Shown in pieces: positions 2,901-35,559 of a DNA stretch of 64,000 nucleotides. The position numbers were made by a program, and so were the translations under genes. This stretch comes from a virus. Numbering within the stretch: the stretch's first letter is position 1; every line of letters starts with the position of its first letter. The notes beneath the pieces were generated by a model. The model saw only the letters and a program-made list of their open reading frames with translations, searched no databases and was not told where the DNA came from. The stretch spans positions 64,001 to 128,000 of IMG/VR virus record IMGVR_UViG_3300042307_001176; one strand, given 5' to 3'.

Positions 2901-3761
2901 ATGAAGCATTTAAAATCTATAGAAGAATTCAAAGCAGTTAATGAACAGCTTTTTGGAAATTTTGGAAAAAGATTATCCGATGCAATATTCGGAGATCCTA
3001 ACGATACTACAAAAACGAGCGAATCACCAATATCTGGATCAATAACTAATATTCCAGTATCTGGAGATAAAGCTAAGAACGTTCAAGCTCTTATGGATGC
3101 AATGAAAAGACATGGAATAACTAACCCATATACTCAAAGAGCAATTCTTGGATGTGTAGGAAAAGAGTCAGGGTTTATTCCGCAAGACGAAACAAGTTAT
3201 AGAAACACTTCTAATGATAGAATACGTAAAATATTTGGCAAAAGAATTACTGTTAGTGATGCTGAGCTTGATACAATAAAAAAAGATGATGTTAGATTCT
3301 ATGATATGGTTTACGGAAAAGAAGCAGCAAAATCTTTCGGTTGGGATACGGGTAATACAGCACCTGGCGACGGTTACAAATATAGGGGTCGAGGATTTAA
3401 CGGTATAACTTTTAAAAGTATTTACCAAAAATATCAAGATATATTGAATAAAGACGGTAAATTAGGTAAATCTGTAGATATAGTGAATAATCCAGATCAA
3501 TTAAATGAAATTGATGTAGCAGCAGAAGCAGCAGTATTATTCTTTATTAATGGCGCAAAAAGTGATACAATGCAAAGAAAATATGGTACTAAAGATATCA
3601 ACACATTTGCTGATCAAAATACAGCTTTAAAAGGAATAGTTAATATTAATGCTGGATTAGGTAACGATGTTACTAGTACATATTTAGGAGGCTTACAAAA
3701 AGCTACAGATATAGCAAATCAATTTAATATTACTGCTACTGGAGCATCTAATATGGCTTAA
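2901..3761 (+). CDS. glycoside hydrolase family 19 (chitinase/lysozyme-like), possibly virion-associated
   Basis: GNTAPGDGYKYRGRG GH19 motif and KESGF; MKHLKSIEEF N-terminal peptide; GATATATA upstream. Confidence 0.8.
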   Translation: MKHLKSIEEFKAVNEQLFGNFGKRLSDAIFGDPNDTTKTSESPISGSITNIPVSGDKAKNVQALMDAMKRHGITNPYTQRAILGCVGKESGFIPQDETSYRNTSNDRIRKIFGKRITVSDAELDTIKKDDVRFYDMVYGKEAAKSFGWDTGNTAPGDGYKYRGRGFNGITFKSIYQKYQDILNKDGKLGKSVDIVNNPDQLNEIDVAAEAAVLFFINGAKSDTMQRKYGTKDINTFADQNTALKGIVNINAGLGNDVTSTYLGGLQKATDIANQFNITATGASNMA

Positions 3762-4136: not shown

Positions 4137-4702
4137 GGGTTACTTGATTTAATTCCTAAAAGCTTTCTGTATCTTGCCACGTTGCAAGACCAGTATTTAG
4201 CACTCCATTTAGGCCCTGGATTATCACATCTCATTCTTTTCTGAAATGATCTTGCTTTTTTAGGATCGCTGTTGTTAACTCTCATACCTGGTTGACCAAA
4301 TCCCACTTTAACAACATTGCCTTTTTCATTTTTGGTGTATACACCAAATTTCCTAGGTCCCGAAGGTGTTCTGAATGGCCGATTGAGATCTACTTTTCTA
4401 CCTCTATACTCTGCCTCGTGTAGCTCTTCTACATCTTCAAAAGGTATGTCAAGAAGAACCTCTCTTCCTTCATATATTCCCTTTTTGCCAGCGTCTGTTC
4501 CGACCAACCAAATTTCATCTTCGGTTAGACCAATTTTTCCTGAATAATATAAATCTCTTGATTCGTTGACTAGATCTAACCAACTTTCCGATTCTAATCT
4601 AAAAACGCTCTCTAATATACCTATACCTTCATTTAGATGGTATGATAAATTTTCAGATAATGTATAGTTTTTAAAGCCGTTAAAATCGCTTATATGCTTC
4701 AT
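4130..4702 (-). CDS. conserved T4-like phage hypothetical protein (basic C-terminal domain)
   Basis: LNRPFRTPSGPRKFGVY...KVGFG...ARSF..R..CD...YWSC pattern of T4-like phage proteins. Confidence 0.65.
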   Translation of the reverse strand: MKHISDFNGFKNYTLSENLSYHLNEGIGILESVFRLESESWLDLVNESRDLYYSGKIGLTEDEIWLVGTDAGKKGIYEGREVLLDIPFEDVEELHEAEYRGRKVDLNRPFRTPSGPRKFGVYTKNEKGNVVKVGFGQPGMRVNNSDPKKARSFQKRMRCDNPGPKWSAKYWSCNVARYRKLLGIKSSNPW

Positions 4703-4710
4703 TATATTTT

Positions 4711-5436
4711 TTATTTAATCAGATTATTTTGTGATATAATATCAGCAATCATTCTTGATATTTTAGTATCTGATGGATAATGTATCCCTGTTACCTCTCT
4801 GCTATTTGCAATTTTTTCACCTAATTTTTTTAAATCTTCTGAAATTTCTGGATGTTTCTTTGAATAATGATCAGCCATTACAAAACCAGTAAGTGCGTGA
4901 CCACTGGGATATGCTGCTGTCATAGCATCAGTACGCATAAGTGGATAAAGGGATAAATTATAAGCTTTAGCAAGTTGATATGGTCTTGGACGATTTATAA
5001 CATTCTTAAGAAAATTTAGTATCACGTCAGTTTGATTATCTACCATGAAATATTCTTCCATAGTTTCATTGTATCCTTTAGATTGTAAAAGATCTATAAA
5101 CAAGTTAGGAAGATTATTTTGATCGTCTGCATATCTAGCAAAAGTTAGATCATCTCCAGTTGCCTTGCTAGTTTTTTCTATTAAAATAGAGAGATCTTCT
5201 TTTGTCGTTTCACTACTGTTAAGTGGCGCTTCTTCTATGATTTTTTTAATAAGCCCCTCTTTTTGAAACCATTCTTTTATTGAATCATTATTATCCTCTA
5301 TGATTTCTTTAAATTCTATAGGTGAATTTCCATATACTATTTCATCTAAATTATCTGACATATCATTAATATAATATGACGTTTTTTCGGATAGTGAAAT
5401 GTTTTTAAATGCGTTAAAATCGCTTATATGCTTCAT
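4711..5436 (-). CDS. PAP2-superfamily acid phosphatase
   Basis: KxxxxRPRP, YPSGH and SR...GIHYPSD motifs. Confidence 0.85.
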   Translation of the reverse strand: MKHISDFNAFKNISLSEKTSYYINDMSDNLDEIVYGNSPIEFKEIIEDNNDSIKEWFQKEGLIKKIIEEAPLNSSETTKEDLSILIEKTSKATGDDLTFARYADDQNNLPNLFIDLLQSKGYNETMEEYFMVDNQTDVILNFLKNVINRPRPYQLAKAYNLSLYPLMRTDAMTAAYPSGHALTGFVMADHYSKKHPEISEDLKKLGEKIANSREVTGIHYPSDTKISRMIADIISQNNLIK

Positions 5437-23996: not shown

Positions 23997-24035
23997 TATA
24001 TTTGCGAATATTATTAAAAACACGTTCTTTAACAT
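23997..24035 (+). promoter_or_regulatory. Bacteroidota-type -7 promoter element plus boxA
   Basis: TATATTTG at 23997-24004; GTTCTTTAACAT at 24024-24035. Confidence 0.65.
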
Positions 24036-24041
24036 ACTTAT

Positions 24042-24264
24042 TTTCTTGAAGCGGTTTAGAGGGTTACTTCATATAATCGATGAAAAGATTAGTTCTCCGG
24101 TTCTAATCTACATAGGTTCTCAGTACTGCTATAGATGAGACGCTTTTATTTTCGTAAGGATTTAAAAGAAGAATACAGTAGCTCGGTTCAATTCACTGGA
24201 CTAGAAATAAAGGAATGATTACCTCCCATAAGGAGGGACCACCTTTTAAAGATTTCTCAAGAAA
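24042..24264 (+). ncRNA. Y-RNA-like structured RNA, copy 1 (long insertion)
   Basis: tttcttga/tcaagaaa closing stem; GAAGCGG; 10-bp stem tttagagggt/accttttaaa; TACTTC; upstream of Ro60. Confidence 0.65.
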
Positions 24265-24280
24265 GTATTATTAATAAAAT

Positions 24281-24351
24281 AAACTCCGACGCGGGAATAA
24301 GGATTACATCATACAGGAAATAAAAACATCCTTATTTAATATTCTCGGTTT
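24281..24351 (+). ncRNA. Y-RNA-like structured RNA, copy 2
   Basis: ccga/tcgg stem; GACGCGG; gaataaggat/atccttattt; TACATC; AATATTCTC. Confidence 0.65.
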
Positions 24352-24360
24352 TTAAATTAT

Positions 24361-24436
24361 TATTCTGAAGCGGGGTAAAGAGTTACTTCTTATAAATTTG
24401 CACGAAACAACACTCTTCATCAATATACTCAGAATA
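24361..24436 (+). ncRNA. Y-RNA-like structured RNA, copy 3
   Basis: tattctga/tcagaata; GAAGCGG; ggtaaagagt/actcttcatc; TACTTC; AATATACTC. Confidence 0.7.
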
Positions 24437-24443
24437 TAACTTT

Positions 24444-24479
24444 AAGGGGTTTGGACGCTATGCGACTGAACCCTTTTTT
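24444..24479 (+). terminator. terminator-like hairpin between the RNA array and the Ro60 gene
   Basis: aaggggtt...aacccttt followed by a T run. Confidence 0.5.
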
Positions 24480-24505
24480 ATTGCGTAACGATTAAAAATA
24501 AATAT

Positions 24506-26152
24506 ATGTCAAGACTAGGCGAATTTGCTGACAAAAAAACAGCAATGCAAATTTTACAAAACTCCTCTTACGGAGCACTAGGAGTAGAGAACTTCATGGG
24601 TGGAACATCTTATTCTTTATCCCCACTGAACACATTAAAGATTGTTGCTGCGTCTTCAATCTTTGGAGAACCACAGTATTATAGAGATGGACTTGGATCA
24701 CCTAAAAATCTTAGTACAATTTTAGAGTATTCAATACTTTCACCGCTGTTCAAAAAAGAATCAGGAGAAGTTATAGACAATATGACTTCATTGGACATAT
24801 TTGAAATTGCCATACAAGCAGCTTTAGACTTTGACTTTAAAGCAACATTAGATTTGACATTAGAACTTCGTAACGAGTACTACATGCGTCTAAATCCTGC
24901 TGTAATATTCATGAAAGCGAGTATGCACGAAGGACGTCAGGAGTTCAACGAGAAAAATCCAGGTTACATGAAAAAGATAGGTAAATCTATTGCTCTACGT
25001 CCAGACGATTTGACCAACCAATTCGAATACTACATGTATAAGAATTCGTCTAAAAAAGGTCTTTCATCATTAGTGAAAAGAACTTGGGCAGAAAAACTTG
25101 CAGAATTCTCTCGTTACCAATTAAACAAATACAAAGGTAAAAGTCTAATTGATCTTGTTCGTATCTCGCATGCTAAGAGTGAAGATATTAACGAGCTAAT
25201 GACAACAGGAGGATTAAAAGTATCTGACGCAGAGAAAACTTGGGAGAATCTAAAATCAGAAGGAAAAAACTGGAGAGATATCACAGACACAATCTTGATT
25301 CCCCATATGGCTCTTTTAAGAAACCTTAGAGGTATTTTTACTGAGATCGAAGATCCTTCAACTACAGCAAGAATCTTAGCTCAATTAAAAGCTGGAGTTA
25401 TTAAAGGTAAACAATTTCCTTTCAGATATTGGTCAGCTTATAAAGCAGTATCAAATTCTCAAATACATCACAAACAACTTGTATTGGATACATTAGAAGA
25501 GTGTCTAGATATTTCAGTTGAGAACATGCCTAAATTAGGAGGTAAAACTGTGTGTCTTTCTGATAACTCAGGATCTGCATGGAGTGCTTTCAATAGCGAA
25601 TATGGATCAGTTACTGTTGCCGAAATTGCTAACTTGTCATCTTTGATCACTTCACTCCAATCTGATTCAGGGGAAGTTGGAGTATTTGGAGATAATCTTT
25701 CGTTAAAAGGAGTATCTAAAAGAAATGGGCTTCTTACACAATTGGAAGAGACATCAGAAAGAGGTAGAGCTCAAGGAGGTGGTACAGAAAATGGTATTTG
25801 GGTATTCTTTGATGATGCTATCAAAAAAGGAACACAATATGACAATATCTTCATCTACTCCGACATGCAAGCAGGACATGGTAATCTTTATGGACACAGA
25901 GAAACAGTAGGGAGAACTAATTTTGTTCATTCAACGAAAGGAGGGACATACATTGACGTACTTGCAATGGCTCAAGAATATAGAAACAAAGTTAACCCTA
26001 AAGTGAATTTATTCACTGTACAAGTTGGTGGTTATAATAACAGTGTTCTACCAGAATCATTATACAGAGGAGCAATTTTAGCTGGATGGACAGGTAAAGA
26101 GCCGGTTTTTGCTAAAGCAATTATAGATGCTTGGGATTCAGAAGAAGCATAA
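24506..26152 (+). CDS. rsr: Ro60/Rsr TROVE-domain RNA-binding protein with vWA domain
   Basis: ENFMGG, FGEPQYY, KYK...DLVRISH, TWE, MALLRNL, FPFRY, MIDAS DNSGS. Confidence 0.9.
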   Translation: MSRLGEFADKKTAMQILQNSSYGALGVENFMGGTSYSLSPLNTLKIVAASSIFGEPQYYRDGLGSPKNLSTILEYSILSPLFKKESGEVIDNMTSLDIFEIAIQAALDFDFKATLDLTLELRNEYYMRLNPAVIFMKASMHEGRQEFNEKNPGYMKKIGKSIALRPDDLTNQFEYYMYKNSSKKGLSSLVKRTWAEKLAEFSRYQLNKYKGKSLIDLVRISHAKSEDINELMTTGGLKVSDAEKTWENLKSEGKNWRDITDTILIPHMALLRNLRGIFTEIEDPSTTARILAQLKAGVIKGKQFPFRYWSAYKAVSNSQIHHKQLVLDTLEECLDISVENMPKLGGKTVCLSDNSGSAWSAFNSEYGSVTVAEIANLSSLITSLQSDSGEVGVFGDNLSLKGVSKRNGLLTQLEETSERGRAQGGGTENGIWVFFDDAIKKGTQYDNIFIYSDMQAGHGNLYGHRETVGRTNFVHSTKGGTYIDVLAMAQEYRNKVNPKVNLFTVQVGGYNNSVLPESLYRGAILAGWTGKEPVFAKAIIDAWDSEEA

Positions 26153-26660: not shown

Positions 26661-27023
26661 ATGAGACACATCAGAATATACGAACAATTCGACATGGCAG
26701 CAGCTCCTGAAATGATAGAATCTCCAGAATTAGTAAAAGATGCTCATTTTGAAGCAGAAACTACAGAGTTCAGACCAACTGAAGACAATGAAGAAGGAGA
26801 ATATGTAGTTAATTTTACAAATCCAGAGGGCGAAGAAACAACAATTAATATTGGGTTTGCTAATGAACCGGAATACGTAGGTAATTCTATGATCAGTTCA
26901 ATTGATATGGTAGCAGATTCAAGTTCGGATGGTAAACAATATTCAATAATAGGATACTATGACGAACTTACAGGTACTGGAGGAGCTTATGAACTTAAAA
27001 AGGTACTAATAGAAGAGATATAA
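26661..27023 (+). CDS. acidic hypothetical protein (MRHIRIYEQF peptide)
   Basis: ORF after GATATATA. Confidence 0.6.
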   Translation: MRHIRIYEQFDMAAAPEMIESPELVKDAHFEAETTEFRPTEDNEEGEYVVNFTNPEGEETTINIGFANEPEYVGNSMISSIDMVADSSSDGKQYSIIGYYDELTGTGGAYELKKVLIEEI

Positions 27024-27027
27024 TATT

Positions 27028-27306
27028 ATGTCGGTTTCGATCTATTCCACTTATAATGAATTTAAATTTGCAGATACAGAATCATGTGAATACTTAGAAT
27101 CTGTTGAATCAGACTATGAAGACGATTCAGATAAGGATGTGTTCTTTTATACAGAAAGCAAACTAGATCCTATAGATGACGCATCTTTTTATGTTGTAGC
27201 TGATACAGAGGACGAGGATATTGCCGAAGATATTTCTAATTACCTAGGAAAGTTTAGTAAGTTTTTTCTTATTGATCTACACAAGACTATTTTCGTTATA
27301 AAATAA
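27028..27306 (+). CDS. acidic hypothetical protein
   Basis: 92 aa ORF. Confidence 0.55.
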   Translation: MSVSIYSTYNEFKFADTESCEYLESVESDYEDDSDKDVFFYTESKLDPIDDASFYVVADTEDEDIAEDISNYLGKFSKFFLIDLHKTIFVIK

Positions 27307-27383
27307 TCTAAAAACATTTTTTTTATAATAGAAAAGTTCTATATTTGTGAAACAAAATAACAAAGAGAACATATAATACTCAA

Positions 27384-27443
27384 ATGAACAAAACAATTAA
27401 CATATTACCTATATCATTAAGACCGTCGTCAAGACGATCCTAA
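27384..27443 (+). CDS. leader peptide 1 (MNKTINILPISLRPSSRRS) of the tRNA operon 1 attenuator
   Basis: Follows TATATTTG (27340); 3' part is ATA/TCN/AGA/CCN codons matching the downstream tRNAs. Confidence 0.8.
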   Translation: MNKTINILPISLRPSSRRS

Positions 27444-27524
27444 AGGTCCTATGTTAATAAAAAATAATCATTAACTAAACCGGGACCTTTAAAAGTCTCG
27501 GTTTTTTTTTGTGTTCTTTGACAT
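27441..27524 (+). promoter_or_regulatory. attenuator 1: antiterminator, terminator and boxA
   Basis: taaaggtcct (27441-50) pairs with gggaccttta (27482-91); terminator aaaccgggac/gtctcggttt plus T run; GTTCTTTGACAT at 27513-24. Confidence 0.8.
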
Positions 27525-27540
27525 GTTGGATTATAAAATT

Positions 27541-27630
27541 GGAGAGTTGCCAGAGCCAGGCTTAATGGATCAGTCTTGAAAACTGACGTAGCGAAAGTTA
27601 CCGGGGGTTCGAATCCCTCACTCTCCGCCA
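27541..27630 (+). tRNA. tRNA-Ser(TGA)
   Basis: Cloverleaf, tcagt-cttgaaa-actga, long variable arm, encoded CCA. Confidence 0.95.
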
Positions 27631-27633
27631 ATT

Positions 27634-27707
<74 letters not shown>

Positions 27708-27713
27708 CACAAA

Positions 27714-27872
27714 GCCCTCTGCCTAGCGCTGGGTATGGATCGAAGATAGAATATGCCTCTACAACGTAGACAGTTAGAATATTTCGGTATTCTTTAATGA
27801 TATGCACACTTATTCTCTAAATCGTGGGTTAGCACAGTTTGTATGTTCTGGGGATATTTAAAGACATACAAT
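27714..27872 (+). ncRNA. unidentified structured spacer RNA in tRNA operon 1
   Basis: Hairpins tgccta/tgggta, tctac/gtaga, agaatat-ttcg-gtattct, ttgtatgt/acatacaa; no plus-strand ORF in the track. Confidence 0.35.
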
Positions 27873-27874
27873 TT

Positions 27875-27947
27875 CGGGATGTAGATCAGTTGGTAGATCG
27901 CCTGGTTTGGGACCAGGAGGCCGTCAGTTCGAGTCTGGCCATCCCGA
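27875..27947 (+). tRNA. tRNA-Pro(TGG)
   Basis: cctgg-tttggga-ccagg. Confidence 0.95.
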
Positions 27948-27954
27948 CATCAAT

Positions 27955-28028
27955 AGAGGCGTAGCTCAATTGGTTAGAGCACATGCCTTATACGCATGCG
28001 GTCACGAGTTCGACTCTCGTCGTCTCTA
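27955..28028 (+). tRNA. tRNA-Ile(TAT)
   Basis: catgc-cttatac-gcatg. Confidence 0.9.
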
Positions 28029-28032
28029 CTTA

Positions 28033-28106
28033 GGTCCCTTAGCTCAGTAGGTTAGAGCAACTGACTCATAATCAGTAGGTCCACGGTTCGAGCCCGTGAG
28101 GGACCA
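28033..28106 (+). tRNA. tRNA-Ile2(CAT), lysidine type
   Basis: actga-ctcataa-tcagt; GGTCCCT acceptor resembles bacterial Ile2 rather than Met. Confidence 0.8.
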
Positions 28107-28167
28107 CTAAATTTTAAAGTCTTTAGGAGAACAAAAGTTCATGCTGGTTCAGATCCAACCTCTTGTA
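28107..28167 (+). pseudogene. decayed class II tRNA 3' remnant, probably Leu(TAA)
   Basis: ctaaa/tttag stem with a TTAA-containing loop, variable arm gaac-aaaa-gttc, T-arm-like gctgg-ttcagat-ccaac, discriminator A; no D arm. Confidence 0.4.
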
Positions 28168-28189
28168 TTTTTTGGATATATAATAAATC

Positions 28190-28561
28190 ATGAATGATCA
28201 TATTAGAATATCCGGACTCGGTATAGAAATATACAAAAATGATATACCAGGAGTGAGATGGAATAAAGCTCAGACTTTTGCAGAATTTCTTAAAGATGGG
28301 TGGAGGTTGCCTACATTAAAAGAACTTGCTTTAATAAAAACACTAAGGGATGTTGGAGGCATAGGAAGATTTCCTGCGGAATATTCGGATTTTTCTGATT
28401 CATATTATTGGAGCGGAAAAGAAGGAGAAGCTGCCACTCTAAGAACTCAATTAAAAGACGGAAGTAGTAGTTATGCTTATTACTTTGATGTGGCTAAAGG
28501 AATTTCTTCACATAGTAAAAAAGCATACGATCTTAGGGTTAGGTTTGTCAGAGATATATAA
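28190..28561 (+). CDS. DUF1566 (Lcl C-terminal)-like domain protein
   Basis: W..A...GWRLPT.KEL...YYWS...RVRFVR. Confidence 0.75.
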   Translation: MNDHIRISGLGIEIYKNDIPGVRWNKAQTFAEFLKDGWRLPTLKELALIKTLRDVGGIGRFPAEYSDFSDSYYWSGKEGEAATLRTQLKDGSSSYAYYFDVAKGISSHSKKAYDLRVRFVRDI

Positions 28562-28564
28562 TGT

Positions 28565-29416
28565 ATGGCAACAACAAGACCTTTTTCGTATAATCCAACG
28601 CAATCAACAATTGCTGGAACTACTAATTTAGGTACCATATGTATAGGAGTATCTGATTTAGACTATGCTGCTAGCCCTGGAGGATTAACGTGGTGGATGG
28701 GACCGGATGAAGATAATTCTTATGTAGTATGCAAGGATGTACCAGCTCAAAATTTCCCTACTCCGTTAGGAAATATAGGCAATGTACAATTTTGGAGATG
28801 CACTAATACAGATTTAGCATTTAGAGATATGGTATCTACAATAAGTGGTACTACACAAGCATCGGCTTCAGCAGCTAGTGATTGGTTAGCATCTAATAAC
28901 TATTGGACTAACAGAAATCCATATCTTGCAGGTCTATATAAAACAACTTACTCTGGATATTTCGCAGATTCAGTTAGTTTCTTTGCAACTGCAACTCCTC
29001 AAGCATTTGGAACAAACCCAGCTACTTCTGTACAAACTACTGCAATATCAGAAGCAGCTAGTGGTGATGGTGATTATTTTAGTTGTCAATGGTTGGGTTA
29101 TTTCAGTCCGACTACTACTCAAACTTATACATTTTACACCAACTCGGATGATGCATCTTATGTGTGGGTTGGAGCAAATGCGATATCTGGATTTACTACA
29201 GCAAACGCAACAGTCAATAATGGAGGTGCTCATGGTCCTATAGAGGCATCAGGTTCTATAGATCTAACTGCAGGAGTTTATTATCCTATAAGAATTCAAT
29301 TCGGTGAAGCCGGCGGAGGTGATGTACTTACTTTCAATTATTCAACACCAACGATAGCAAAAACAACTAATGTAACAGGATTAGTTTTCTATAATACATC
29401 AACTAACGGATTCTAA
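28565..29416 (+). CDS. putative virion fibre/decoration protein with PA14 domain
   Basis: W.GYF.P...YTFYTNSDDASYVW...YYPIRIQFGE.GGG. Confidence 0.75.
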   Translation: MATTRPFSYNPTQSTIAGTTNLGTICIGVSDLDYAASPGGLTWWMGPDEDNSYVVCKDVPAQNFPTPLGNIGNVQFWRCTNTDLAFRDMVSTISGTTQASASAASDWLASNNYWTNRNPYLAGLYKTTYSGYFADSVSFFATATPQAFGTNPATSVQTTAISEAASGDGDYFSCQWLGYFSPTTTQTYTFYTNSDDASYVWVGANAISGFTTANATVNNGGAHGPIEASGSIDLTAGVYYPIRIQFGEAGGGDVLTFNYSTPTIAKTTNVTGLVFYNTSTNGF

Positions 29417-29421
29417 AACAT

Positions 29422-30198
29422 ATGGCAACAACAAGAGCATTTTCATATAATCCAACACAATCAACAATTGCGGGAACTACGAATGTGGGTACTCTATGTA
29501 TAGGTGTATCTCCTTTAGCATATAGTACTAACCCTGGTGGATTAACCTGGTGGATGGGACCAGACGAAGATAATTCTTACGTGATAGCTAAGGATGTATC
29601 AGCTGGAAATTTTCCCACTCCTGTAGGGAACGTAGGTAATGTACAATTTTGGAGATGCACTAATACGGATTTAGCATTTAAAGATTTAGTATCTATAATA
29701 AGTGGTACTGCACAAGCATCGGCTTCAGCAGCTAAATCATGGCTAACAACAAATAATTATTGGACTAATTATACCAGTGGTGTAACTTTCTCTCGCCCTT
29801 TCGTTAATGGTATTGCACCAGGAGCTACCACAGAAACTGCTTGGAATACATTCAGAGCAGCATTAACGGGATCTTATACACAATTTGTTATATCAAATTC
29901 ATTAGGATTTAGTCTAACCGTAAGCCATGCTACTTCGGTCCAAACTTTGGCAGATGCTTTAAAAAATGCAACAAGCAATACCTCAGTAACTATAAACAGC
30001 GTAGTTTGGAGAGTGGGAACAGCTTGTGGAACTCCTTCTATTGGTGGAGTTGCTGTTGAATTTTCTAATGTAGGAAGCTGTACTGGATCAAGTACTATAG
30101 CATTTAGACCTATGATTAATAACTTAAACTGGGGAGGTATGGGTACAGGGTCTACTGTAAGCCAGGCTTCTCAAACAATGACACTAACATTTAGCTAA
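29422..30198 (+). CDS. paralog of 28565: shared N-terminal ~115 aa, different C-terminal domain
   Basis: Near-identical MATTR.FSYNPTQSTIAGTTN...NNYWTN N-terminus. Confidence 0.75.
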   Translation: MATTRAFSYNPTQSTIAGTTNVGTLCIGVSPLAYSTNPGGLTWWMGPDEDNSYVIAKDVSAGNFPTPVGNVGNVQFWRCTNTDLAFKDLVSIISGTAQASASAAKSWLTTNNYWTNYTSGVTFSRPFVNGIAPGATTETAWNTFRAALTGSYTQFVISNSLGFSLTVSHATSVQTLADALKNATSNTSVTINSVVWRVGTACGTPSIGGVAVEFSNVGSCTGSSTIAFRPMINNLNWGGMGTGSTVSQASQTMTLTFS

Positions 30199-30361
30199 TG
30201 GAAAATTATAGAATAATGAATATAACAGTAACACCATATATTGTTGTTCCTGGTAAAGAATCGCTAACTCTAGAAGAATGCATATTGTGGATAAATGAAA
30301 ACGGAGGAGATTGTCCTTTATGTAATTACACCATACAGCCATCGGAACATAATATATAGTC

Positions 30362-30494
30362 AGATATATAAGTAATGAAAACATTTAAAGATTTTATTTA
30401 CGAAAAAATTAATGAAGACACATTATCGTATAGGGGATTAGTTTTCTATAATACATCAACTAACGGATTTTAAAACATATGGCAACAACAAGAG
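30362..30494 (+). repeat. chimeric duplication scar
   Basis: 30362-30440 identical to 30630-30708; 30435-30494 matches 29378-29437; junction microhomology GGATTA. Confidence 0.85.
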
Positions 30495-30642
30495 AATTTG
30501 CATATAATTTACAATAAATTAAATAAATAGAGAATATTAAAAATTAGGCAAAGTAACCACAAACCCACTGGTAATAGGCAGTTCTTGAGATGGAATGCAA
30601 TATAAAACGTAAGTCCTGCTTTGCCTTTTAGATATATAAGTA

Positions 30643-31227
30643 ATGAAAACATTTAAAGATTTTATTTACGAAAAAATTAATGAAGACACATTATCGTATA
30701 GGGGATTAAAATTTAATTTTAATTCAACTATCGATGGGTATGTTAAAGTAAAAGAAGATGATCCAACTATATCATTTGATAGTGAAACCTCGTTTGATAA
30801 ACTTATAATAACCGATCCTCGTGAATTCTTTAACTTTAGATATGATAATGAAAAGGATAATAAGAACTTATCTTCTATTGATTCAGAAAATGTTCTTAGA
30901 ATTAGAATTGGATCTAAAGATTTTAAGGGAAGATCCGGCGGGGTTACTCATGTATCTGTAAGAGTCCCTGAAAATTTTGACTATAATAAATTTCAATTAG
31001 AGTTACCTAATATAAAGATAGCGCTTACAGATAGAACTGAAGTAGACAGAGTTATTAAAGAAGTTGAGGCTCTTGTAACTAAATGTGCAGGGGAAGAACC
31101 TAATGCGTATTCAGATAATAAACCAGATTACAGACAGGACATCGTAAATTTTATTAAATCTATAGAAGAAAAGCTAGGTAAAGAAGATACCAAAAGAATA
31201 TTTATTGATATTATTAATAAATTGTAA
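30643..31227 (+). CDS. hypothetical protein (MKTFKDFIYE peptide)
   Basis: 194 aa ORF after GATATATA. Confidence 0.65.
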   Translation: MKTFKDFIYEKINEDTLSYRGLKFNFNSTIDGYVKVKEDDPTISFDSETSFDKLIITDPREFFNFRYDNEKDNKNLSSIDSENVLRIRIGSKDFKGRSGGVTHVSVRVPENFDYNKFQLELPNIKIALTDRTEVDRVIKEVEALVTKCAGEEPNAYSDNKPDYRQDIVNFIKSIEEKLGKEDTKRIFIDIINKL

Positions 31228-31265
31228 AATTTAATTTACATAGATAAGAATATATAAAATAAAAA

Positions 31266-31544
31266 ATGAAACATCTTAAAAAATATCAATCTAATAATTC
31301 AGAAATTAACGAAGGATTTTGGGATTCTCTTTTTGGCAAACCCACTGTTGATGATGCTGCTCATGACCAAATGAGAGGTCAAGGATGGAGCCACAGAGGT
31401 AAAGACGAAGAAAATTATATCATGTTTCAAGGACAAAAGTTCTATCCAGAACAGATCCAATATGATGATGCTTATTCAACTAAACAAATACCAAGAGTTG
31501 AAGGTGGTATGCTAATCGTAGCTAACCCAGCTTGGAATTTATAA
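31266..31544 (+). CDS. hypothetical protein (MKHLKKY peptide)
   Basis: 92 aa ORF after GAATATATA. Confidence 0.6.
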   Translation: MKHLKKYQSNNSEINEGFWDSLFGKPTVDDAAHDQMRGQGWSHRGKDEENYIMFQGQKFYPEQIQYDDAYSTKQIPRVEGGMLIVANPAWNL

Positions 31545-31633
31545 TAAAAATAAAAAAATATCAGAAATCGTTTTTTAATGAGAAACTTTTCTGTACATTT
31601 GGAGTATATAATAAAAAAGGAACAAAACTTTCA

Positions 31634-31723
31634 ATGAAACACTTTTTAAATATCGCAACAGATTTTCAACTTCGTAAAGAGGATGACCTTCTAGAGGATA
31701 GATTTAAGTGTCAGAGGAAATAA
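31634..31723 (+). CDS. leader peptide 2 (MKHFLNIATDFQLRKEDDLLEDRFKCQRK) of the tRNA operon 2 attenuator
   Basis: Follows TACATTTG (31594); EDDLLED run matches the downstream Glu, Asp and Leu(TAG) tRNAs. Confidence 0.8.
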   Translation: MKHFLNIATDFQLRKEDDLLEDRFKCQRK

Positions 31724-31794
31724 ATTTATATAATGATATAATTTAAACCTCTGATAACCTCAGAGGTTTTTTTGTTTTATACGCTCTTTGAAAT
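31711..31794 (+). promoter_or_regulatory. attenuator 2: antiterminator, terminator and boxA
   Basis: tcagagg (31711-17) complementary to cctctga; terminator aaacctctga/tcagaggttt plus T run (31745-31773); GCTCTTTGAAAT at 31783-94. Confidence 0.8.
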
Positions 31795-31797
31795 TAC

Positions 31798-31869
31798 GCT
31801 GCCATCGTCTAACGGTTAGGACCTATGGTTTTCATCCATAAAATCGGAGTTCGATTCTCCGTGGCAGTA
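31798..31869 (+). tRNA. tRNA-Glu(TTC)
   Basis: tatgg-ttttcat-ccata. Confidence 0.93.
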
Positions 31870-31880
31870 CAAAAAATTAA

Positions 31881-31955
31881 GGTCCCGTAGTTAAACGGCT
31901 ATAATGCTGCCCTGTCACGGCAGAGTTCGGAGTTCGATTCTCCGCGGGACCGCCA
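31881..31955 (+). tRNA. tRNA-Asp(GTC)
   Basis: ctgcc-ctgtcac-ggcag; encoded CCA. Confidence 0.95.
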
Positions 31956-31963
31956 AATTATAT

Positions 31964-32036
<73 letters not shown>

Positions 32037-32040
32037 CTAA

Positions 32041-32121
32041 GCCCAGGTGGTGAAATGGTATACACGCTAGTCTTAGAAATTAGTGACGTAAGTCGTGAGG
32101 GTTCGAGTCCCTCCCTAGGTA
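32041..32121 (+). tRNA. tRNA-Leu(TAG)
   Basis: ctagt-cttagaa-attag; long variable arm. Confidence 0.92.
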
Positions 32122-32123
32122 CT

Positions 32124-32693
32124 ATGAAAATTATATTTTTAGATCATGACGGTGTAATTTGTCTTTCCCAACAATTTGGAGGACGTTACAAAAAGCAGGC
32201 TAAAGCTAGAAAAAAGCTTTCTCAGGATCTGATGACTTTTCCTGTTGGAGCTAGGTTTGATAATTTTGATAAGAAAGCAATAAAGGTTTTAAATACAATC
32301 TTAGAAGAAACAGGAGCTGAAATAGTGGTTTCTTCAGATTGGAAAAACTGGGCAACTGTAGAAGAAATGGGTGAATACTATAAAGAGCAAGGAATTATTA
32401 AAACTCCTATAGATTTCACTCCTAGAGAATACACGTTACCAGAGAAACAAGAATGGCATCCAGATTGGGATTTAGAAGCATCAAGAACTTTAGAAATCCA
32501 AGAATGGTTGAAAGATCATCCAGAAGTCTCTCATTGGGTAGCAATAGATGATTTGGATATGAGTTTTAAAGAAGTATCTTCTAATAGAAGCGGTACCGGA
32601 TGGGGATTAATAAATTTCGTACACACTCCAAGCCTTAATGAAGGTATTAAAAAATGTGGAATTAAAGAAAAAGTTTTAAAATTTTTAAAATAA
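32124..32693 (+). CDS. HAD-superfamily phosphatase (HAD_SAK_2, RNA-repair-associated type)
   Basis: IIFLDHDGV, IVVSSDW, EI..WL...WVAIDD; start is the ATG right after tRNA-Leu. Confidence 0.8.
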   Translation: MKIIFLDHDGVICLSQQFGGRYKKQAKARKKLSQDLMTFPVGARFDNFDKKAIKVLNTILEETGAEIVVSSDWKNWATVEEMGEYYKEQGIIKTPIDFTPREYTLPEKQEWHPDWDLEASRTLEIQEWLKDHPEVSHWVAIDDLDMSFKEVSSNRSGTGWGLINFVHTPSLNEGIKKCGIKEKVLKFLK

Positions 32694-32790
32694 TTTAAGA
32701 AATCATTTTTTTATCCCGTTACATTTGGTTATCTTTGTAATATAAATTAACAAACTTTATTTACAATTTACAATTTACAAAAAACCTATT

Positions 32791-33168
32791 ATGAAAAATC
32801 AAAAATTAAAAAGAGTTACTATGAGTGTATCTCACGAGAATCCTGATGCACAGGTAAATTTTAAATCAATCGGAATTGGAAAAGATCAAAGAGAAGCAGC
32901 TATTTTTGCTTTAGGATCTTTCTTAAATGTTATAGATGGAGTAAGCCAAGAAGGTATATCAGATTACAACGAAGCTTTGGAAATGGTTAATGCTCAATAT
33001 TCGGAAGCTGAAATAGTATCATTTACTGAAACCCAATTGGAAAGGGCAAAAGATGCTTTTATTACTACTTACGAAACAACTAAAGTTGATTATGTTTGGG
33101 ACGAAGTAGAAGATGGAATGGCTTTGGGCTTGATCGAAGGATTAGAAATAATCGAAGAGGAATATTAA
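32791..33168 (+). CDS. acidic hypothetical protein
   Basis: 125 aa ORF behind a TAnnTTTG promoter. Confidence 0.6.
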   Translation: MKNQKLKRVTMSVSHENPDAQVNFKSIGIGKDQREAAIFALGSFLNVIDGVSQEGISDYNEALEMVNAQYSEAEIVSFTETQLERAKDAFITTYETTKVDYVWDEVEDGMALGLIEGLEIIEEEY

Positions 33169-33254
33169 AAAATATCAAAAAACATCTTTTTATTCAAAAA
33201 AGATATTGTACTTTTGCGAAACTATTCTGGAAACAGGATATATAATTAAGAAAA

Positions 33255-33362
33255 ATGAAAAACTGTAGTAAACATAACATCAATCGCATGATCAGTCAGA
33301 TTAATGGCTGCTATCAAACGGTGGCGTTTTGGGCAAAGGGGAAAGAACCCGATCGAAGCTAA
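33255..33362 (+). CDS. leader peptide 3 (MKNCSKHNINRMISQINGCYQTVAFWAKGKEPDRS) of the tRNA operon 3 attenuator
   Basis: Follows TACTTTTG (33209); first 30 codons use exactly the 16 amino acids of the 16 downstream tRNAs. Confidence 0.85.
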   Translation: MKNCSKHNINRMISQINGCYQTVAFWAKGKEPDRS

Positions 33363-33436
33363 TACAGGAAATCATATTTAGATATTTTGGAAAAGGCTTT
33401 GATTCACATCAAAGCCTTTTTTTTGTTCTTTGACAT
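33351..33436 (+). promoter_or_regulatory. attenuator 3: antiterminator, terminator and boxA
   Basis: gatcgaagct (33351-60) pairs with ggctttgatt (33395-404); terminator aaaaggctttgat/atcaaagcctttt plus T run; GTTCTTTGACAT at 33425-36. Confidence 0.8.
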
Positions 33437-33448
33437 ACTGGAAAAAAT

Positions 33449-33521
33449 GGTACCGTAGCTCAGTCGGTAGAGCACTAGACTGAAAATCTAGGTGTCGCCG
33501 GTTCGATTCCGGCCGGTACCA
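33449..33521 (+). tRNA. tRNA-Phe(GAA)
   Basis: ctaga-ctgaaaa-tctag. Confidence 0.95.
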
Positions 33522-33531
33522 CAATTAAAAT

Positions 33532-33604
33532 GATCTCGTAGCTCAGCTGGTAGAGCACCGCACTTTTAATGCGGGAGTCGAGGGTTCGAGCCCCTCCGGG
33601 ATCA
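33532..33604 (+). tRNA. tRNA-Lys(TTT)
   Basis: ccgca-cttttaa-tgcgg. Confidence 0.95.
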
Positions 33605-33610
33605 CTACAC

Positions 33611-33683
33611 ACATCAGTAGCTCAATTGGTAGAGTGTTGGTCTCCAAAACCAAAGGTTGTAGGTTCGATTCCTACCTGGTGTG
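33611..33683 (+). tRNA. tRNA-Trp(CCA)
   Basis: ttggt-ctccaaa-accaa. Confidence 0.95.
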
Positions 33684-33689
33684 CTAAAA

Positions 33690-33762
33690 GGCTCTGTAGT
33701 TCAAGGGATTAGAATGGATCACTACGGATGATCTGATCCTGGTTCGAATCCAGGTGGAGTCT
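33690..33762 (+). tRNA. tRNA-Arg(ACG)
   Basis: gatca-ctacgga-tgatc. Confidence 0.92.
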
Positions 33763-33773
33763 CAAACAAATAG

Positions 33774-33844
33774 GGTCGTGTGGTCGAGTGGTTAGGCACT
33801 AGTCTGCAAAACTAGTTATACTGGTTCAATTCCAGTCACGACCT
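33774..33844 (+). tRNA. tRNA-Cys(GCA)
   Basis: ctagt-ctgcaaa-actag; U73. Confidence 0.95.
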
Positions 33845-33861
33845 CAAAAAAATTTAAAAAT

Positions 33862-33999
33862 ATGATGATAGAAAGTAAAATAGTAGCCAGAGGAAGTTTC
33901 CCCTCAAGCAGAGAAAACTTAAGAAGAGAAACATTAAAATTTAATAGAGCCAAAATATTGATCGGAAGAATTAAAAGACTAATTAACAAAGGAAAGTAA
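33862..33999 (+). CDS. small basic ORF inside tRNA operon 3
   Basis: 45 aa MMIESKIVARGSFPSSRENLRRETLKFNRAKILIGRIKRLINKGK; stop overlaps the 5' end of tRNA-Ser. Confidence 0.4.
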   Translation: MMIESKIVARGSFPSSRENLRRETLKFNRAKILIGRIKRLINKGK

Positions 34000-34076
34000 T
34001 CTCAGATGGTGACGGGGCTCGCCTGCTAAGCGAAGCGTACCTTAATTGGTATTTGGTTCGATTCCAATTCTTTCCG
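33991..34076 (+). tRNA. tRNA-Ser(GCT)
   Basis: tcgc-ctgctaa-gcga; long variable arm; G73. Confidence 0.85.
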
Positions 34077-34082
34077 CAACAT

Positions 34083-34159
34083 TGACATATAGCTCAGTTG
34101 GTTAGAGCGTTGATCTGATACGTCAAAGGCCGAAGGTTCGAATCCTTCTATGTCAACCA
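34083..34159 (+). tRNA. tRNA-Ile(GAT)
   Basis: ttgat-ctgatac-gtcaa; encoded CCA. Confidence 0.92.
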
Positions 34160-34164
34160 CATTT

Positions 34165-34237
34165 AGTCTCTTAGCTCAGTTGGCAGAGCGTTTGGTTTAC
34201 ATCCAAAATGTCGGGGGTTCGAATCCCTCAGGGACTA
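34165..34237 (+). tRNA. tRNA-Val(TAC)
   Basis: tttgg-tttacat-ccaaa. Confidence 0.93.
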
Positions 34238-34239
34238 CA

Positions 34240-34321
34240 AGATTAGAAGCGGCGAATGGGGTTACTTCTCAGAACTTTTAAATTTGACCAAAAAACACCT
34301 CGCTCAAATATTCTCTAATCT
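34240..34321 (+). ncRNA. Y-RNA-like structured RNA, copy 4, within tRNA operon 3
   Basis: agattaga/tctaatct; GAAGCGG; GGGGTTACTTC; AACAC; AATATTCTC, same architecture as the 24042-24436 copies. Confidence 0.7.
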
Positions 34322-34326
34322 AAACT

Positions 34327-34398
34327 GGGGATGTAGCTCAGCGGTAGAGCTCTCGACTGTTAATCGATAGGTCGCTGGTTCGAATCCAGCCTTCCCCG
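34327..34398 (+). tRNA. tRNA-Asn(GTT)
   Basis: tcga-ctgttaa-tcga. Confidence 0.93.
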
Positions 34399-34403
34399 CA
34401 ATT

Positions 34404-34485
34404 CGGAGTGTTGAGCAATTGGCTGCTCAGCTGACTGTAAATCAGCCGCCTTAAGGCATTGGGGGTTCGAATCCCTCCGCTCCGA
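34404..34485 (+). tRNA. tRNA-Tyr(GTA)
   Basis: gctga-ctgtaaa-tcagc; long variable arm. Confidence 0.92.
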
Positions 34486-34505
34486 CACAGTGTATCTGTA
34501 AGATA

Positions 34506-34558
34506 TAGAGACGGACAGTCCGACGGTTGAAGTGGATGCGTAATTCCACACGTCTCTA
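34506..34558 (+). ncRNA. unidentified small structured element
   Basis: tagagacg/cgtctcta closing stem with internal gtgga/tccac hairpin. Confidence 0.35.
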
Positions 34559-34561
34559 AAT

Positions 34562-34637
34562 GCGATAGTAGCTCAGTTGGTAGAGCACCGTCCTTCCAAG
34601 TCGGGGGTCGCAGGTTCGAATCCTGTCTATCGCTCCA
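34562..34637 (+). tRNA. tRNA-Gly(TCC)
   Basis: cttccaa loop; U73 and CCA. Confidence 0.93.
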
Positions 34638-34638
34638 C

Positions 34639-34711
34639 GGGGTAGTAGCTCAATTGGCTGAGCGCTTCCTTTGCAAGGAAGAGGATGTGGGTTCAAGTCC
34701 CATCTACTCCA
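34639..34711 (+). tRNA. tRNA-Ala(TGC)
   Basis: cttcc-tttgcaa-ggaag; G3:U70. Confidence 0.95.
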
Positions 34712-34718
34712 CTTATAT

Positions 34719-34791
34719 GGCGAGTTAGCTCAGTTGGTAGAGCGTTGGAATCATACCCCAAAGGTCGGCAGTTCGAACCTGCCACTCGCTA
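34719..34791 (+). tRNA. elongator tRNA-Met(CAT)
   Basis: GGCGAGT acceptor; atcatac loop. Confidence 0.85.
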
Positions 34792-34793
34792 CT

Positions 34794-34870
34794 GTGACGG
34801 TAGCTCAGTTGGTTAGAGCGTCTGATTGTGGTTCAGAAGGTCGGGGGTTCGATTCCCCTCTGTCACCCCA
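34794..34870 (+). tRNA. tRNA-His(GTG)
   Basis: tctga-ttgtggt-tcaga; C73 and CCA. Confidence 0.93.
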
Positions 34871-34871
34871 T

Positions 34872-34944
34872 GCCTTTGTAGCTCAGTTGGTAGAGCACTT
34901 CACTTGTAATGAAGATGTCGCAGGTTCAATCCCTGTCAAAGGCT
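34872..34944 (+). tRNA. tRNA-Thr(TGT)
   Basis: cttca-cttgtaa-tgaag. Confidence 0.95.
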
Positions 34945-34950
34945 CTAAAT

Positions 34951-35023
34951 TGTCCTGTGGTGTAATTGGCAACACGTCTGGTTTTGGACCAGAAGAGTCC
35001 AGGTTCGAGCCCTGGCGGGACAT
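34951..35023 (+). tRNA. tRNA-Gln(TTG)
   Basis: tctgg-ttttgga-ccaga; U1-A72. Confidence 0.93.
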
Positions 35024-35070
35024 CTAAAAAATAAGATAAATAGATTGACCAGTGTGTAAAAAATGTAGTT

Positions 35071-35559
35071 ATGAAAGTGCTAGTTCTAAATAATGACTTT
35101 ACTCCTATAAGTGTTACCGACTTTGCTCGTGGATTTAAGCTTGTGTATAAAGGTAAAGCAGAAGTTTTAGAGCACGATGAACAAAATCCAATTGTTACTG
35201 AACAAAGCACTTACAAAAGACCTTCTGTTATCAGACTTTTAAAATATGTTGTATTGCCTTTTAAGAAGTTAAAACCGACTAGGGAAAATATCTTTAGAAG
35301 AGATGGGATGAAATGTGTTTATTGTGATACTACTAAGAACCTAACAATAGATCACGTTCTACCTAGATCTAGAGGTGGAGTTAATACATGGGAGAATCTA
35401 ACAACATGTTGTTCAAAATGTAACAATAAAAAAGATGACAGGACTCCAGAAGAAGCTGGAATGAGAATGAGACAGAAACCATTCAAGCCAGGATACGGAT
35501 ATTTTATACGCAATTTCGCAAAAGGATTGGAGGTATGGACAGCATATCTCCCTGATTAA
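35071..35559 (+). CDS. HNH endonuclease
   Basis: VLVLN...PSVIRL...RD...CVYC...TIDHVLPRSRGG..TWEN...C..CN..K. Confidence 0.9.
   Translation: MKVLVLNNDFTPISVTDFARGFKLVYKGKAEVLEHDEQNPIVTEQSTYKRPSVIRLLKYVVLPFKKLKPTRENIFRRDGMKCVYCDTTKNLTIDHVLPRSRGGVNTWENLTTCCSKCNNKKDDRTPEEAGMRMRQKPFKPGYGYFIRNFAKGLEVWTAYLPD

Follow-up and report, generated by a model that had tools for sequence, protein, structure and literature searches.

A putative leader-peptide attenuator upstream of a tRNA operon in an uncultured phage

Amino-acid operons and a synthetase are known to be regulated by leader-peptide attenuation. The multivalent leader-peptide attenuators of enterobacteria include thrL (Thr/Ile) and ilvL (Ile/Leu/Val), and trpL, hisL, leuL, and pheL belong to the same group of leaders. 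In E. coli, the pheST attenuator with its pheM leader controls phenylalanyl-tRNA synthetase. Bacterial tRNA genes are controlled mainly at initiation, through growth rate and the stringent response. The pheL attenuator has been reviewed (PMC3082878). Papers on leader-peptide attenuation were found for amino-acid operons, resistance genes, and other targets, but none was found on leader-peptide attenuation of tRNA genes.

The locus described here lies within a 64,000-nucleotide stretch of DNA (the window), which has 24 tRNA genes and comes from a 154-kb record of an uncultured phage. Comparative evidence supports a predicted unit composed of a promoter, a translated leader, an antiterminator, a terminator, a tRNA operon, and a co-transcribed HAD gene. 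The element is interpreted as a ribosome-mediated (leader-peptide) transcription attenuator that gates the phage tRNA operon, a reading held with good confidence but short of certainty.

Like the enterobacterial amino-acid attenuators, the element has a promoter-proximal short ORF with a cluster of cognate codons covering two or more amino acids, followed by an intrinsic terminator. The antiterminator likewise shares the 5’ arm of the terminator, and the position of the ribosome would decide the fold. The element differs in its targets, which are four tRNAs and an RNA-repair-type HAD_SAK_2 phosphatase rather than biosynthetic enzymes. With tRNAs as the regulated genes, the signal would be the supply of the operon’s own products. 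It also differs in being phage-borne, in its Bacteroidetes-type setting, in having no conserved 1:2 protector, and in carrying a boxA-like element after the terminator. With pheST/pheM it shares leader-peptide attenuation of a component of the translation apparatus, but pheST controls a synthetase, senses one amino acid, and includes no tRNA genes. T-box riboswitches also couple tRNA status to terminator read-through by a choice between terminator and antiterminator. A T-box, however, binds uncharged tRNA without translation, whereas the phage element has a conserved open frame. No T-box match was returned by Rfam cmscan over positions 27000-35200 (E<=1). The Rfam comparison gave no known leader, riboswitch, or matching family either; a Thr_leader hit with an E value of 0.88 is at chance level.

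The leader ORF (31634-31723, + strand) is 29 codons in length plus a TAA stop codon. It begins with ATG at 31634, ends with TAA at 31721-31723, and is preceded by an A-rich 5’ UTR. The predicted peptide is MKHFLNIATDFQLRKEDDLLEDRFKCQRK. Codons 16 to 22 (31679-31699, + strand) form the putative regulatory run GAG GAT GAC CTT CTA GAG GAT (E D D L L E D). These seven codons specify only Glu, Asp, and Leu(CTN), as the initial annotation had stated and as is read directly from the sequence. The final two codons of the run, GAG GAT (31694-31699), are invariant among the relatives described below. The annotation had also pointed to the use of CTN in place of the common TTA. Both Leu codons of the run are indeed CTN (CTT and CTA), but CTN accounts for 43.5% of Leu codons in the phage against 49% for TTA. 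Unusual CTN usage was therefore dropped as a stand-alone argument.

The rarity of the run was estimated against 163 long ORFs of the same phage, where codons decoded by the operon’s four tRNAs make up 19% of usage. Only 2 of 41,326 seven-codon windows in this background consist solely of such codons, and both are in one ORF. From this rate, the chance of such a run in the leader is about 1e-3. A run of this kind is contained in 1 of 37,577 28-codon segments from the same background. Taken over the full leader ORF, 9 of 28 codons match the operon tRNAs, which is not significant (binomial p=0.069), and the other 19 are decoded by tRNAs outside the operon.

The operon downstream of the leader contains four tRNA genes on the + strand, all identified by ARAGORN: tRNA-Glu (UUC) at 31798-31870, tRNA-Asp (GUC) at 31881-31955, tRNA-Met (CAU) at 31964-32037, and tRNA-Leu (UAG) at 32041-32122. 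Direct reading of the tRNA-Met sequence gives a 1:72 mismatch and a GGG/CCC anticodon stem, and it is therefore considered initiator-like. The HAD_SAK_2 phosphatase gene (32124-32693, + strand) starts 2 nucleotides after tRNA-Leu. It matches Pfam PF18143 with an E value of 4.7e-23 and a score of 82.5 bits, against a gathering cut-off of 27.5. The earlier proposal that the operon continues into a HAD phosphatase is borne out by this arrangement. No terminator-like site was found on the + strand between 31769 and 33389, and the HAD_SAK_2 gene would be co-regulated with the tRNAs.

The intrinsic terminator (31745-31776, + strand) is composed of AAACCTCTGA / TAACC / TCAGAGGTTT and a U-run, with a predicted energy of -12.5 to -13.0 kcal/mol. 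Its hairpin (31745-31769) has a 10-base-pair stem and a 5-nucleotide loop and is followed by TTTTTTTG (7 U). The sequence CCTCTGA in the 5’ arm is located at 31748-31754, and the corresponding 3’ arm is located at 31760-31766. The last codons of the leader contain TCAGAGG at 31711-31717, which is identical to 31760-31766. This is the duplication of the terminator’s 3’ arm that had been noticed at the outset. The suggestion made with it, that this copy can sequester CCTCTGA, also stands. The antiterminator 5’ strand (region 2), TGTCAGAGG, spans codons 26-28 (31709-31717, + strand) and pairs with 31748-31756 over 9 base pairs. For pairing of the ORF end with the 5’ arm of the terminator, the predicted energy is -14.1 kcal/mol, compared with -7.5 +/- 2.0 kcal/mol in 500 dinucleotide shuffles (p=0.002).

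The two structures are mutually exclusive in the predicted folds. Positions 31700-31776, folded alone, are predicted to adopt as their minimum free energy (MFE) fold (-16.7 kcal/mol) the antiterminator hairpin, in which 31709-31717 pairs with 31748-31756 around an inner helix (31721-31745, + strand). The inner helix starts at the stop codon and is predicted in all variants. When the stretch covered by a ribosome at the stop codon is blocked, the terminator is predicted to form at -13.0 kcal/mol. In the full-length MFE fold, the start region is base-paired to 31705-31716, and this pairing was considered as a possible 1:2 protector. It is not conserved, being absent from two of the relatives (L006/L007); no conserved 1:2 protector hairpin was found.

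The spacing of the leader is compatible with such a switch. The first base of the invariant GAT (31697) is 12 nucleotides before the antiterminator strand at 31709 (14 nucleotides in L006), and the stop codon is 4 nucleotides after 31717. The distance is 12-14 nucleotides in every variant, close to the reach of the ribosome’s 3’ edge from its A site in footprint data. With a footprint of this generally accepted size, a ribosome at or before GAG GAT would leave the strand free, and one positioned several codons later, or at the stop codon, would cover it.

Public phage genomes contained no close relative, offering at most tRNA-sized DNA matches and distant HAD matches of <=32% identity. IMG/VR contained many relatives, from which ten distinct versions of the leader were recovered. 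All ten keep the TAnnTTTG promoter element, the ATG, the stop position, the terminator, and the boxA-like motif. The leader frame is open in 10 of 10 variants, and the other two frames contain 1-4 stops each. Within the ORF, the indels measure 12 and 3 nucleotides and stay in frame; those outside it are 1-2 nucleotides long. Non-synonymous differences outnumber synonymous ones in the leader ORF. The frame is thus kept and the peptide sequence is not, as predicted for a leader peptide and not for a functional micro-protein. The C-terminus of the peptide is KCQRK in one lineage and RPPSF in L006/L007, tracking the terminator sequence.

Conservation of the codon run in related phages had been suggested as a check and is only partly met. 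The contiguous run is kept solely in the closest relatives. Elsewhere it is interrupted by R, S, N, V, or G, the longest runs being 2-6 codons, and the corresponding blocks read KGDERLED, QLDRLED, KEDSLLED, KENDLLVED, and KENNLLVED. What every variant does keep is a Glu/Asp/Leu(CTN)-rich block that ends in the invariant GAG GAT, seven codons before the stop.

The alternative folds were compared among the relatives as well. For the free RNA, all 10 variants have the antiterminator as MFE fold, with energies between -16.7 and -22.3 kcal/mol. The terminator, at -13.0 to -16.2 kcal/mol, forms only when the stop region is blocked, again in 10 of 10, and its sequence is either conserved or co-varied in all of them. 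In L006/L007, the terminator stem is CCTCGG/CCGAGG, and the end of the ORF is changed to CCGAG (codons CCG CCG AGT). Their inner helix also has a different sequence that retains pairing and is either replaced or compensated. The inner helix of L025/L112 shows a compensatory U-A to G-C exchange. Because these changes keep the pairing, the 3’ end of the ORF is taken, on comparative grounds, to be constrained by RNA pairing. The folds were computed for each sequence separately, and no column-wise covariation count was made because the MAFFT alignment (A1) shifts the L006-type arm by one base.

The promoter -7 element, TACATTTG, is of the Bacteroidetes TAnnTTTG type and lies at 31594-31601 on the + strand, with a T-run approximately 25 nucleotides upstream. 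The TA..TTTG positions are invariant among nine aligned variants. The same layout of -7 element and T-run also precedes stable-RNA units at 23997, 27340, and 33209. A sigma-70 promoter scan of the window was uninformative (40 sites vs 37.8 expected). The generic promoter pattern TTNNNTANNTTTGNR was not enriched (7 matches vs 5.8 expected), so the promoter call rests on conservation and on the likeness among the four stable-RNA promoters.

A boxA-like element, GCTCTTTGAAAT, is located at 31783-31794 on the + strand. It was identified by motif match, and there are no Nus-binding data for it. The E. coli rrn boxA is ugcucuuuaacaa (PMC2724277). The phage element resembles it in having the GCUCUUU core and in heading an untranslated stable-RNA unit, as in rRNA operons. 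It meets the criterion for an GCUCUUUAACAA-like boxA, namely a position in the transcribed leader of a stable-RNA operon. It differs from the rrn boxA in lying downstream of an attenuator terminator. Were it to act as a boxA, it would do so solely on polymerases already past the terminator, and NusB/NusE binding data are lacking. Exact matches to GYTCTTTRAMAT occur four times in the window, all on the + strand and all heading stable-RNA units. The copy at 24024 lies inside a transcript, just downstream of its own promoter, which points to boxA as an RNA element.

The gap between the U-run and tRNA-Glu is 28 nucleotides, and the boxA-like element occupies 12 of them. A promoter between the terminator and tRNA-Glu was considered and rejected: the TTTG elements are just 8 nucleotides apart, and the motif behaves as a transcribed boxA. 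As no room for a promoter remains between the U-run and boxA, the tRNAs must be reached by terminator read-through. In two relatives (L090, positions 3583-3680, and L112), about 100 nucleotides of apparently structured sequence are found between the boxA-like element and tRNA-Glu.

These features can be joined into a proposed mechanism. Transcription would start from the TACATTTG promoter, and a ribosome is inferred to translate the 29-codon leader. If the RNA from 31709 onward is free, the antiterminator hairpin would form and consume the 5’ arm of the terminator. Polymerase would then cross boxA and transcribe tRNA-Glu/Asp/fMet/Leu(UAG) and the HAD_SAK_2 gene. If instead a ribosome keeps up with polymerase as far as the last codons or the stop codon, it would cover 31709-31717, the terminator at 31745-31769 would form, and transcription would end. 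Delay of the ribosome at the invariant GAG GAT, or anywhere before it, would leave the strand free, and GAG GAT, 12 nucleotides upstream, would be the last position with this effect. The default state would be read-through, and the operon would be turned on, by the inferred stalling, when codons for Glu, Asp, and Leu(CUN) are decoded slowly. The inferred outcome is negative feedback on the supply of the operon’s own tRNAs.

The element is only relatively specific for Glu, Asp, and Leu, because any slow codon before GAG GAT would also free the antiterminator. These codons are decoded by host tRNAs too, and the sensor has no means of distinguishing those from the phage tRNAs. The original proposal that the leader controls the Glu/Asp/fMet/Leu(TAG) operon is thus supported by comparative evidence, while the regulation itself, including the read-through response, remains an inference without expression data. 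Against an attenuator stand the loss of the contiguous run in relatives, the weak enrichment over the whole ORF, and the absence of transcript, ribosome-profiling, or reporter data.

Two further leaders in the window can be compared with this one. Leader 1 (27384-27443, MNKTINILPISLRPSSRRS) precedes tRNA-Ser(UGA), Arg(UCU), Pro, Ile(UAU), and Met. It matches that operon in 10 of 18 codons (p=3e-4), and its RNA, when free, has the antiterminator as MFE fold. Leader 3 (33255-33362) has 28 of 34 codons matching its operon (p=0.006) and contains no Leu codons. Its free MFE fold keeps the terminator. Matches between leaders and operons other than their own are poor (0/18, 2/28, 2/34, and 3/34). Units of leader, terminator, and boxA were observed ahead of these other tRNA blocks at 27384-27524 and 33255-33436.

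A leader of the same design is present in the cultured Cellulophaga phage phi4:1 (KC821632), where a TAtgTTTG promoter, the ORF MKIQRLHLQELEQPIISGGTGV, a terminator, and a tRNA cluster follow one another (L091, positions 1214-1340; approximately 87065-87190 of the record, with the leader at approximately 87065-87133). The cluster downstream encodes tRNA-Pro, Glu, Gln, His, Leu(UAG), Leu(UAA), and Arg(ACG). An 11-codon run in the leader, QRLHLQELEQP, is made up of codons of those seven tRNAs alone and samples each of them. The analytic probability of this run is about 1e-7, and 0 of 40,674 windows were comparable. The free MFE fold of the phi4:1 leader, like that of leader 3, keeps the terminator, and the thermodynamic argument is therefore not valid for every member. 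The 40-nucleotide phi4:1 promoter recurs at approximately 2113-2152 of L091, before a second terminator and tRNA-Ala.

Two more comparisons come from the relatives. The leader before tRNA-Trp at 9055 in L020 differs by eight amino-acid changes from the leader before tRNA-Asn at 8112 in L016. The L020 operon lacks Asn, Lys, Thr, and Pro tRNAs. Each of the eight introduces a residue from the set of its own operon (W, I, F, G, D, Q); N to I and K to Q are among them. In L106, a contig of approximately 320 kb, the leader MSYLFSSYLYSSSSLFMSGRTSLAVC (MSYLFSSYLYSSSSLF...) and a terminator (4630-4775) precede tRNA-Tyr, Ser, Tyr, Ser, and Phe and a block of Leu tRNAs. At the amino-acid level, 15 residues match without exception, but the leader’s TCA codons are not decoded by the Ser tRNAs that were found.

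Three other explanations of the leader were weighed. The switch could be real and yet respond to any slowing of ribosomes, whether by host shut-off, ribosome shortage, or any scarce tRNA, with no special role for the Glu/Asp/Leu block. The default antiterminator fold fits such a general sensor of translation capacity, since any ribosome late to the stop codon would give read-through; so do the 19 of 28 codons not decoded by operon tRNAs and the interruption of the run in relatives. It does not account for the placement of the invariant GAG GAT at the last position where a stalled ribosome leaves region 2 free, or for a Glu/Asp/Leu(CTN)-rich block in every variant. Leaders before other operons also carry the codons of those operons, and the L020 leader has changed together with its tRNA set. 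A purely general sensor is considered unlikely. The weight of the evidence is likewise set against chance, by which an acidic, Leu-containing stretch in a spurious ORF would happen to precede an ordinary terminator. Acidic stretches are common in this phage’s proteins, and the run was picked after the sequence had been seen. The empirical rate is nevertheless about 1e-3 or lower, the shuffle test of the duplicated arm gave p=0.002, and diverged relatives retain the ORF, its spacing, and both folds. Coincidence of this kind is regarded as highly improbable.

The promoter, 29-codon ORF, and terminator do form a complete unit, and they could make a micro-protein or a trans-acting sRNA on their own account. 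The tRNAs would then be reached by constitutive leak-through, and the codon match, which is weak over the whole ORF, would be incidental. The excess of non-synonymous differences and the swapping of the C-terminus with the terminator sequence are unlike a functional micro-protein, and a pure sRNA would keep neither an open frame nor in-frame indels. An independent gene would also leave unexplained the antiterminator as MFE fold in ten variants and the codon-to-tRNA matches at several unrelated leaders. This explanation is judged quite unlikely as a replacement for the attenuator. An sRNA role in addition to attenuation remains possible, as released attenuator RNAs act in trans elsewhere, an example being rnTrpL (PMC6614838).

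The three attenuators in the window, with their counterparts in many tRNA-rich phages, might amount to more than housekeeping feedback alone. They could together be a sensor of tRNA depletion, that is, a codon-resolved counter-defence circuit. Host shut-off or anticodon nucleases would lower the level of a tRNA and cause a stall on the matching leader. The stall would switch on that block of replacement tRNAs and, with it, RNA-repair functions, which in this phage would be the HAD_SAK_2 phosphatase along with a neighbouring Ro/TROVE protein and Y-RNA-like genes. This extension is possible but doubtful, and it is offered tentatively.

If the attenuator reading is correct, it would show how tRNA-rich phages meter their tRNAs codon by codon and would link tRNA supply to RNA-repair genes. 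It would also give a direct read-out of the codons that limit translation during infection, as well as a compact, portable ‘decoding-speed’ switch for Bacteroidetes. Because a leader of the same design occurs in a cultured phage, phi4:1 of Cellulophaga baltica, the idea is open to bench experiments.

Several other features were observed in the window. The unit at 23997-24500 contains a promoter (TATATTTG), a boxA-like sequence (GTTCTTTAACAT, 24024), and two GAAGCGG...GTTACTTC copies (24049-24071 and 24368-24390). The copies resemble Y-RNA-type genes and are followed downstream by a TROVE/Ro60-like gene (24506-26152). In relatives, similar modules are found between tRNAs. A conserved insert of approximately 167 nucleotides (27709-27874) lies between tRNA-Arg(UCU) and tRNA-Pro and is near-identical in L003 and L004; it may be a structured RNA.

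A tRNA-like sequence at 33990-34076 scores 38.3 bits on the Rfam tRNA-Sec model, below the 47-bit threshold, and is not called by ARAGORN. It is preceded by a 45-codon Lys/Arg/Ile-rich ORF (33862-33999), and both are kept in L002, L003, and L004. Two tandem paralogous genes (28565-30198 and 30375-30710; 283 and 258 amino acids) have their N-terminus in common. The opening MKTFKDFIYEKINEDTLSYRGL recurs at 30375 and 30643, a repeat that looks like a duplication or recombination scar.
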